From Chlamydiia bacterium (lineage in GTDB: Bacteria; Chlamydiota; Chlamydiia; Chlamydiales; Rhabdochlamydiaceae), in contig CAWDOQ010000010.1 in assembly GCA_963804085.1 (NCBI GenBank), positions 160,001 through 224,000 of the forward strand: 64,000 bases of DNA. The letters run 5' to 3'. This document shows positions 161 to 726 of the stretch, piece by piece. The notes under the pieces are model-generated. The model was not told the origin of the DNA, searched no databases, and was given only the letters and a program-made list of their open reading frames with translations. Made by a program: the position numbers and the translations under genes. Positions within the stretch are counted from its first letter, which is position 1, and each line of letters starts with the position of its first letter.

Positions 161-214
161 TTCGAAACCCCGTGCCTTGCCTCTGCCTGTGCCTGTGCCC
201 GCCCCTTCCTGATT
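161..214. repeat. Left arm of inverted repeat flanking four-helix-bundle gene
   Basis: ttcgaaaccccgtgccttgcctctgcctgtgcctgtgcccgccccttcctgatt is the near-perfect reverse complement of 673-726; hexameric GCCTGT periodicity. Confidence 0.92.
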
Positions 215-293
215 CAGCTTCGATGAAAATTAATTTTTTGATACCCTTCTGTGTCCTTAGAATCGAGGTGTTTATAATCTGGGGGTTGGAAAA

Positions 294-674
294 ATGATGG
301 AAACATTGGTGAAGGGACAAAACAGCATCCTGGATCACGAGAAGCTGGATGCGTATCACATCGCCATAGAATTTGTGATATTATCCGATGCAATCATAGA
401 GCATTTACCACGCGGTAGAGGTTACTTAAGCGATCAGCTACAGCGTGCCGCATTATCAATATCTTTAAATGTGGCTGAGGGTGCTGGTGAATATGCGATC
501 GATGAAAAGGTGCGATTTTACCGCATGGCTAAGAGATCTGCGACAGAGTGCGCTGGTATTTTGGATGTTTGCCGGAAACTGCAACTGTTGGATGAGCAAA
601 GATATGTAAGTGGCCGAGAGCTGTTGGTGCGGATAGTATCGATTCTCACTAAAATGGCCCAAAGAACTAACTAA
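294..674 (+). CDS. Four helix bundle protein (23S rRNA IVP / bAvd-like family)
   Basis: HEKLDAY...LSDQLQRAALSISLNVAEGAG...FYRMAKRSATEC motifs typical of this family. Confidence 0.9.
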   Translation: MMETLVKGQNSILDHEKLDAYHIAIEFVILSDAIIEHLPRGRGYLSDQLQRAALSISLNVAEGAGEYAIDEKVRFYRMAKRSATECAGILDVCRKLQLLDEQRYVSGRELLVRIVSILTKMAQRTN

Positions 675-726
675 TCAGGAAGGGCGGGCACAGGCACAGG
701 CAGAGGCACAGGCAAGGGGTTTCGAA
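673..726. repeat. Right arm of inverted repeat flanking four-helix-bundle gene
   Basis: aatcaggaagggcgggcacaggcacaggcagaggcacaggcaaggggtttcgaa pairs with 161-214; it starts within the ORF stop codon. Confidence 0.92.

Follow-up and report, generated by a model that had tools for sequence, protein, structure and literature searches.

The origin of the intervening sequences (IVSs) of 23S rRNA, and the role of the conserved open reading frame (ORF) they carry, have been open questions since about 1990. The available part of one account (PMC4990558) establishes for ORF-bearing IVSs that RNase III cuts them at their inverted-repeat stems and so excises them, and that the S23p protein of Xanthomonas is a homopentamer; there, the origin of IVSs is treated as unresolved, and the proposals that they are a "remnant of transposition" or a "mobile element whose ORF aids mobility" stand as untested ideas. 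Avd, the accessory protein of diversity-generating retroelements (DGRs), is also a pentamer, and all five of its protomers contact, via flipped-out bases, an RNA stem-loop near the protein's own gene (bioRxiv 10.1101/2023.10.23.563531, likewise available in part). Here we analyze a 64-kb stretch of DNA from a Chlamydiia bacterium (the whole of which we refer to as the window), in which a single four-helix-bundle (4HB) gene lies between mnmE and nth and is enclosed by inverted arms composed of hexamers. Our observations support the conclusion that this gene and its inverted repeat constitute a recurrent mobile cassette family that is found outside rRNA in many phyla. We consider positions ~152-738 of the window to be, more likely than not, a copy of that cassette with no transposase of its own, whose stem would be cleaved and whose arms would be bound by the encoded protein in the manner we propose below.

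We confirmed that the inverted repeat around the window ORF is real. A repeat search of the window identified a 27-nt inverted core (178-204 and 682-708) that is 100% complementary and, outside it, a further inverted segment of 17 nt (161-177 and 710-726); gapped local alignment joins the two into arms of 54 nt each, 161-214 and 673-726, with a score of 91. When the same geometry was placed at 300 random sites in the window the mean score was 19.6 and the maximum 65, with a score of at least 50 in a single placement, and on this control we rejected a chance repeat. In the RNA fold of 150-740 the arms are paired in both the minimum-free-energy and the centroid structure (z = -9.66; none of 100 shuffles was as stable), and the isolated arms fold as a 56-bp duplex of -110.5 kcal/mol. 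A terminator or attenuator was also rejected, because the loop is 477 nt long and has a conserved gene inside it. The resulting unit, an ORF enclosed by the arms of a long stem and bounded by the inverted repeat, measures ~570-590 bp.

Tandem Repeats Finder reported a period of 6 in both arms (172-199 and 687-714). Read on the plus strand and in the register of the cassette family, the left arm consists of an outer segment (161-170), a five-hexamer array (171-201; CGTGCC TTGCC TCTGCC TGTGCC TGTGCC CG) and an inner segment (202-214), while the right arm begins within the stop codon of the ORF and contains an array at 685-716 (CG GGCACA GGCACA GGCAGA GGCACA GGCAAG) followed by an outer segment at 717-726. 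The window arms match the family register, their inner CG having decayed to TG, TC or TT (the YGTGCC form). The loose pattern GCCTGTGCCTGT, searched with 2 mismatches, has eight matches in the window compared to 3.9 expected and is not itself rare (6 of 100 shuffles reach eight), though seven of the eight fall within the two arms. These features agree with a preliminary description of the locus, made by inspection of the DNA, which had recorded two ~54-bp hexamer arms around one ORF in the mnmE-nth gap, with the right arm starting at the stop codon and the arms able to form a stem; the alignment, ORF, profile and folding data bear it out.

The ORF (294-674, plus strand, 126 aa) is the only one between the arms, and the right arm begins within its stop codon (TAA, 672-674). 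It matches PF05635 with 69.6 bits (cutoff 33.8) and TIGR02436 with 66.4 bits (cutoff 24), and the AlphaFold2 model of its product (predicted local distance difference test score, pLDDT, of 86.5) has four helices at residues 3-36, 43-63, 69-95 and 101-125. The best structural match in Foldseek is 2GSC (XCC0516; E 1e-5, template modeling (TM) score 0.77-0.91), a structure of five chains, followed by 2RLD (BT_0352), and a profile search of the PDB with the same protein found 2GSC at 2.4e-10; the Avd structures 8UB7 and 4DWL were matched by Foldseek with TM scores of 0.72-0.85 at 11-13% identity. The motif GxxRxxxSxxxNxxE is given as that of the family (PMC3936711, available in part), and the window protein has R51-S55-N59-E62 of it; the first G is Q48 in the clade to which the window protein belongs, and S55, N59 and E62 are invariant across an alignment of 31 relatives (alignment A1). 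Profile matches and the modeled fold together support assignment of the product to the 4HB family of 23S rRNA IVS proteins and Avd, a kinship that the preliminary description had recognized. Comparison of the window gene to those of 20 relatives gave proportions of nonsynonymous differences (pN) of 0.13-0.33 versus synonymous differences (pS) of 0.71-0.93, that is, strong purifying selection with synonymous sites saturated. Profile searches found no nuclease or recombinase family match for the protein, PF05635 being its sole domain family; PADLOC assigned the cassette to no defence family, tblastn of the protein against plasmids gave no match, and a search for a second 4HB gene within the 64-kb window found none.

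How does this unit compare with the described systems? Like the 23S IVSs of Coxiella and Leptospira (PMC4990558, in its available part), it has a PF05635-family ORF inside terminal inverted repeats that form a long stem, it is similar in size (~570-590 nt, relative to ~430-760 nt for IVSs), and its distribution is sporadic and horizontally spread. Unlike them, it sits between mnmE and nth and not in rRNA, its arms are five phased hexamers, and cutting by RNase III, which has been shown for IVSs, is for the window unit something we infer; Rfam found no rRNA in the window and none in the 35 loci scanned out of the 79 loci of relatives described below. The window protein shares its fold family with Avd, but there is neither a reverse transcriptase nor a template or variable repeat beside its gene, and identity to Avd is the 11-13% noted above; a DGR remnant was rejected because of the absence of a reverse transcriptase nearby. 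A third point of reference is the REPtron, in which the gene for a repetitive extragenic palindrome (REP)-associated tyrosine transposase (RAYT) is flanked by inverted short GC-rich repeats that also occur elsewhere as empty hairpins. The window resembles this arrangement in having one gene flanked by inverted repeats plus empty hairpins elsewhere, and differs from it in that the enclosed gene encodes a four-helix bundle with no match to an HUH (Y1) nuclease family and in that its arms are tandem hexamer arrays and not single palindromes.

Relatives of the window protein are numerous: 2,613 were detected at E <= 0.001. The best 120 of these are 58-100% identical to it (118 of them at least 74%), and most are on contigs of 0.5-2 kb, such short contigs probably being what repeated DNA yields in assemblies. 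Alignment A1, when used as the query of a genome scan, identified 79 loci in Chlamydiota, Legionellales/Coxiellaceae, other Pseudomonadota, Verrucomicrobiota, Planctomycetota, Acidobacteriota, Thermodesulfobacteriota and others. With a narrow geometry, in which the 450 nt upstream of the ORF were scored for an inverted repeat with the 250 nt downstream, a score of at least 50 was reached by 32 of the 76 loci that could be scored and by 1 of 390 placements made at random within these loci, and a wider-range search picked up further copies whose left arm is more distant. We considered a locus with at least 150 nt on each side to be bracketed if its inverted repeat scored at least 45 or if there were strict CG-phased arrays on both sides of the gene. 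By this definition 59 of the 68 loci with full flanks are bracketed, six have an array on one side and three have none (the flanks of the other 11 of the 79 are incomplete). In 50 of the 79 loci no transposase or remnant of one was recognized.

The arms of the family follow a precise design. The canonical arm has five hexamers plus CG, i.e., 32 nt with six phased CG dinucleotides, and 54 of 83 strict ORF-adjacent arrays have exactly this length, with 20 of 26 nt (the shortest array that the strict pattern can detect) and nine longer. Autocorrelation at period 6 is 0.52 in 37 non-redundant cassettes, versus 0.17-0.33 at lags 3, 4, 5, 7, 8 and 9. The CG is kept in phase in most lineages, the commonest arm is CGTGCC CGTGCC CGTGTG CGTGCC CGTGCC CG, and a short outer inverted segment is usually present beyond each array. 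One arm sequence recurs across phyla even though synonymous sites in the gene are saturated, from which it follows that the arms are constrained in sequence and not in pairing alone. When the left and right arrays of 20 equal-length pairs were compared, mismatches were found in 20 of 98 cases at hexamer position 3 versus 4 of 98 at position 4, and variant hexamers are sometimes out of register between the two arrays. Conservation of sequence and the position-3 mismatches would favor recognition of the arms by a protein. Arms are tandemly multiplied in four loci (L037, L036, L044 and L051); in the first of these the arm and its surroundings are repeated in units of ~68 nt, five times upstream (4527-4826) and twice downstream (5442-5541) of the 4HB gene.

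What moves these cassettes? The clearest case is that of the chlamydial metagenome-assembled genome (MAG) CAWCVY01, in which BLAST of one locus (L006) against the others showed that 19 loci share a common 1.43-kb unit at 97-99% identity. Gene, arms and an IS5-family transposase occur together in this unit, at 19 or more sites, and the flanks beyond its tips are unique. Its outer tips are GACATCTTGCATAACC, with the hexamers next inward, and TA is found beside both tips except in L009 (AA, at the left) and at two right tips of L056. The transposase gene, which is upstream of the 4HB gene and overlaps it, is split by a -1 frameshift; in addition to the part that matches NF033581 (141.7 bits, cutoff 140) it has a C-terminal piece that is frameshifted. 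Internal-deletion variants of the unit exist, the most reduced being a form with arms and the 4HB gene in L009, and one IS5-4HB unit (L015) is enlarged to 2.6 kb by an IS110-family transposase gene within it (3362-4165, 142 bits). In two other chlamydial genomes (loci L007 and L001) C-terminal remnants of the transposase are directly upstream of the 4HB gene, and our tree groups the window protein with IS5-linked copies in a starred clade (98/97). Such units are comparable to IS5-family elements and their derivatives of the miniature inverted-repeat transposable element (MITE) type, as they have terminal inverted repeats, TA, unique sites and deletion forms. What sets them apart from that family is an additional gene that is strongly conserved, together with ~30 nt of phased hexamers within either end, and the window copy differs also in having no transposase and tips that do not demonstrably match.

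The module is not confined to the company of IS5. Between the arms of other loci are transposases of the IS630 (L038, 218.6 bits), ISAs1 (L047, 341.6 bits) and IS66 (L035, 316.8 bits, and L066, 181.7 bits) families and, in three copies of one MAG (L042, L043 and L049), a C-terminal remnant of IS1380. Inner terminal repeats that hug the IS5, IS630, ISAs1 and IS66 transposases were searched for and none was found, which fits the transposases being part of the unit without proving it. Longer or fused forms account for four matches; P0122 is a single ORF of 380 aa with both DDE domains and PF05635. We also compared flanks by tblastx within nine clades of closely related cassettes and found them to be unrelated in seven, seven Thermoanaerobaculia/Acidobacteriota loci with near-identical proteins being among those that share none. 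One pair shared both flanks and another shared one, and the lone match of a third clade was of an upstream flank to a downstream flank. Cassettes with no transposase also occupy different sites, which suggests that they also move.

The neighbors of the window cassette are those of an operon-like gap outside rRNA: mnmE, nth and psd. Upstream is the 3' end of mnmE (2-151, plus strand), of which the last 49 codons are present with a TAA stop at 149-151; it matches PF12631 MnmE_helical at 1.6e-09 and NF003661/TIGR00450 over the last ~45 profile positions. These matches fall short of the cutoffs since the window begins within the gene and includes just its tail. Downstream is nth, the endonuclease III gene (732-1370, plus strand; TIGR01083 220.1 bits, cutoff 211.7, with an HhH-GPD domain), whose start codon (732-734) is 5 nt beyond the right arm. 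A scan of 1-1500 for plus-strand signals called neither a sigma-70-like promoter in the spacer nor a terminator in the mnmE-nth gap. The copy itself is small, bounded by an inverted repeat and lacking a transposase, and it belongs to a clade with IS5-linked copies, so that it would qualify as a non-autonomous (MITE-like) element.

We propose that the cassette inserted between the stop codon of mnmE and the start codon of nth as a transposable element, and that either its transposase was lost or it was moved in trans, leaving the present non-autonomous copy. Transposition by a DDE enzyme is a likelier way of moving than a transposase-free route, because in relatives the gene and arms share a unit with DDE transposases and one such unit is present at no fewer than 19 sites. 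As no terminator or promoter was called between mnmE and nth, RNA reading through from mnmE would carry both arms. By analogy with the stems of 23S rRNA IVSs, the ~56-bp duplex of the arms would then be a substrate of the host RNase III, and its cutting would separate the mnmE, 4HB and nth RNAs and free the ribosome-binding region of nth at the base of the stem. Excision of this type would enable the element to sit in an operon, or in rRNA, at low cost. The 4HB protein most likely binds the five-hexamer arms; the arm is its predicted binding site based on its pentameric relatives and on Avd, which grips an RNA stem-loop with five protomers. The group I introns of IS605-family elements, transposon-borne RNAs that remove themselves (PMC10690162, available in part), are alike in being an RNA-level device on a transposon that lessens insertion damage. 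They differ in that the stem cuts proposed here are made with no rejoining, and for that reason these cuts could spare only rRNA and the gaps between genes. For annotation, the mnmE-nth gap should be regarded as mobile-element DNA, and the cassette may supply nth with its ribosome-binding site and perhaps also with its start codon.

Several of our observations weigh against this reading and need to be set beside it. A search of the window with the IS5-family transposase of L006 (tblastn, 1e-3) found no transposase in the copy, and the spacer between left arm and ORF (215-293, plus strand), whose last ~35 nt show, in alignment A2, a weak similarity to the 3' end of the IS5-family transposase gene that relatives have ahead of the ORF, matches only the transposase remnant of L001 (z = 2.8, 11 of 500 shuffles as good); local alignments to L002, L003, L006 and L007 were not significant. 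The outer tips of the window copy are also not significantly like IS5-type tips. On the left, where the flank at 152-160 is a possible decayed element tip of uncertain boundary (the minimum-free-energy stem reaches ~157), alignment A2 sets AAAGAATGTCTTTC against the relatives' (TA)GACATCTTGC and 163 of 1000 shuffles are as good. On the right, where a possible decayed tip GAAAGATGAA followed by TA (727-738, boundary uncertain) overlaps the nth start, it sets AAGATGAATA against AAGATGTCTA and 268 of 1000 shuffles are as good. TA is present at 737-738 after the putative right tip and TAAA before the left, and the right tip may include the nth ATG. The label of IS5 derivative was dropped for the window copy because tip and spacer homology is not significant except for that of the spacer to L001, and the link to the IS5 form is only suggestive. 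The insertion at mnmE-nth is drawn from the behavior of the family, since none of the 79 relatives' loci contains mnmE, nth or psd and hence none has the junction. As for the relatives, the IS4 transposase of L002 has perfect inner terminal repeats of 18 bp (0 of 500 shuffles as good), which mark it as an independent insertion, and on that account it was removed from the module-carrying elements; the IS630, ISAs1 and IS66 transposases could likewise represent nested insertions, with repeats too weak to be recognized. Of the 59 4HB copies whose translations were used for the tree, five contain in-frame stops. Finally, the position-3 mismatches, the out-of-register variants and the conservation of arm sequence across phyla oppose a pure pairing role for the arms, and the polarity of the arrays relative to the unit, which is reversed in at least eight of 29 pairs, opposes a strand-specific RNA-binding role.

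The hexamer design is also found in the window with no gene inside it. One empty hairpin (19473-19551, -73.2 kcal/mol) has an 11-nt loop between 34-nt arms, in each of which six CG are phased over 32 nt, and in a second copy (44578-44656, -88.9 kcal/mol) the orientation of the loop is reversed. Runs of at least five CG in hexamer phase were found in both hairpins (19474-19550 and 44579-44655) and at one further site in the window, giving nine overlapping matches versus 0.04 expected. The preliminary description had regarded the empty hairpins as possible non-autonomous relatives of the cassette; they do share the arm design of the family (six phased CG, 32 nt), whereas their hexamers (CGCGCC / CGCTTC / CGCATG) differ from those of the window cassette. 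That they represent arms-only relatives of the cassette family is, from the design, a reasonable interpretation. Empty inverted-repeat pairs are also found between genes in Desulfobacter latus (L078), where the hexamer types are the same as those of its own 4HB arms, and L059 has two hairpin-then-4HB units in which a tight hairpin is directly upstream of each 4HB gene. The 44578-44656 hairpin has a neighbor of its own, a minus-strand gene (44660-44760) that ends in Gly-Gly-Met repeats, as in a GroEL-like C-terminus, with its stop ~20 nt before the hairpin, and the hairpin may act as a terminator-like 3' structure of this gene.

Could the hairpin, then, be the basic unit, with the 4HB protein serving in its binding or maintenance in the manner of a REP/RAYT system and the transposases being incidental or nested? 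We consider this unlikely, although there are several observations that it would accommodate: the empty hairpins and pairs of the same array design in the window and in the intergenic regions of L078, the tight hairpins upstream of the 4HB genes of L059, the tandem multiplication of arms in L037, L036, L044 and L051, the reversed polarities, which are expected for a gene between two hairpins, and the separate nature of the IS4 insertion in L002. It does not readily accommodate the unit that is present in 19 copies in CAWCVY01, which ends at tips outside the arms and includes the transposase, nor the failure to find inner terminal repeats around the IS5, IS630, ISAs1 and IS66 transposases. Moreover, the 4HB protein matches no family of nucleases or recombinases, and the empty hairpins of the window use hexamers other than those of the cassette arms. 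A different possibility is that the arms act as DNA, i.e., as subterminal sites at which the 4HB pentamer, as an architectural factor encoded by the element, would bend or pair the two ends and so help any DDE transposase to assemble there, the RNA stem being a by-product. In the IS5, ISAs1 and IS1380-remnant units the arrays lie, at either end, immediately inward of the outer inverted segments; this is in its favor, as are the conservation of hexamer sequence and number across phyla, the tolerance of left-right mismatches at position 3 and the company that the module keeps with several transposase families. We nevertheless rate it as quite improbable, as 50 of the 79 loci have no recognized transposase and yet the protein is under strong purifying selection, a reversed array polarity relative to the ends is awkward for a factor that positions ends, and the sole relative with a solved complex binds RNA (bioRxiv 10.1101/2023.10.23.563531, in its available part).

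The preliminary description had itself proposed a third explanation, an IVS-like cassette that moves without any transposase and whose stem is the substrate of RNase III or of some other mobility mechanism. Part of that proposal stands, as the cassette is a recurrent mobile unit outside rRNA and tblastn found this copy to be free of a transposase; in addition, most relatives have no transposase and closely related cassettes without one are present at different sites. Movement through the stem with no transposase is the part that we find very improbable. The only demonstrably recent multi-copy burst is of a unit that encodes a DDE transposase and whose tips are flanked by TA, the window cassette has no reverse transcriptase beside it, and an RNA cut by RNase III has no way of returning to DNA. 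For ~152-738 we retain the reading of a transposase-less copy of a cassette family that is probably moved by DDE enzymes.

If the family as a whole is considered, a broader scheme can be put forward, albeit as a tentative one that we hold to be possible but doubtful. In it, the PF05635 pentamer and the inverted five-hexamer arms (one hexamer per protomer) would be a portable module carried just inside the ends of DDE insertion sequences of several families, the elements would be cut out of read-through transcripts by RNase III and could thereby reside in operons and rRNA genes with little harm, the module would outlive the transposase in the form of gene-plus-arms cassettes and of arms-only hairpins, and the ORF-bearing 23S IVSs would be such elements in rDNA. 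Were this true, it would settle both the origin of those IVSs and the role of the S23p/IVP protein. What is already apparent is that the same protein family occurs in three states, namely outside rRNA, joined to DDE transposases, and in a recent burst in one genome. There is consequently material with which the ideas on IVS origin can be tested, including a 32-nt candidate binding site, a natural deletion series, and both autonomous and non-autonomous forms. Additionally, genes annotated as 23S_rRNA_IVP have been described as wedged between the genes of cas operons (PMC3936711, in its available part), which fits the habit of the cassette, as its gaps to flanking ORFs are frequently 0-30 nt, and this habit may explain PF05635 genes wedged in operons such as cas loci. 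No publication connecting PF05635 genes with insertion sequences, or reporting such hexamer arms, came up in our literature search, which did not extend to most subscription journals.

Some relatives have neighbors that we record as observations in their own right. In a chlamydial MAG (L034) the RNase III gene, rnc (4144-4929, 247 bits), is immediately upstream of the 4HB cassette, which may be a coincidence. The cassettes of L057 (4768-4841) and L059 (1981-2069) start no more than ~45 nt downstream of a tRNA gene, and group II intron RNA domains are near the cassettes of L054 (1355-1432) and L047 (4654-4783). In the window, nth shares its reading frame with the 4HB ORF (294-1370), a single TAA separating the two, which is probably due to chance (one frame in three), and the right arm, when read in that frame, gives a Gly/Thr/Arg-rich, linker-like stretch. 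A minus-strand ORF of 403 aa (2669-3880) has ankyrin-repeat-like motifs that are visible by eye in its translation; taken together with the closest relatives of the cassette, it is in keeping with an environmental chlamydiotal host (Chlamydiota).

Other repeats are present in the window. A GC-rich, non-coding element of nested palindromes occurs in two copies, 7740-8245 and 12905-13530, with tips TA[G/C]ACATGTCGGGG... and ...CCCCCGACAT[G/A]TGTA. The second copy has an extra hairpin module of ~140 nt that is also found alone at 17548-17689, beside a solo left tip (17485-17700). The element has no match in Rfam and looks like a MITE. An AT-rich hairpin with perfect 40-nt arms and a 25-nt loop (32410-32514) is nested in a second inverted pair of 20 nt (32345-32619) and is unrelated in sequence to the hexamer arms.

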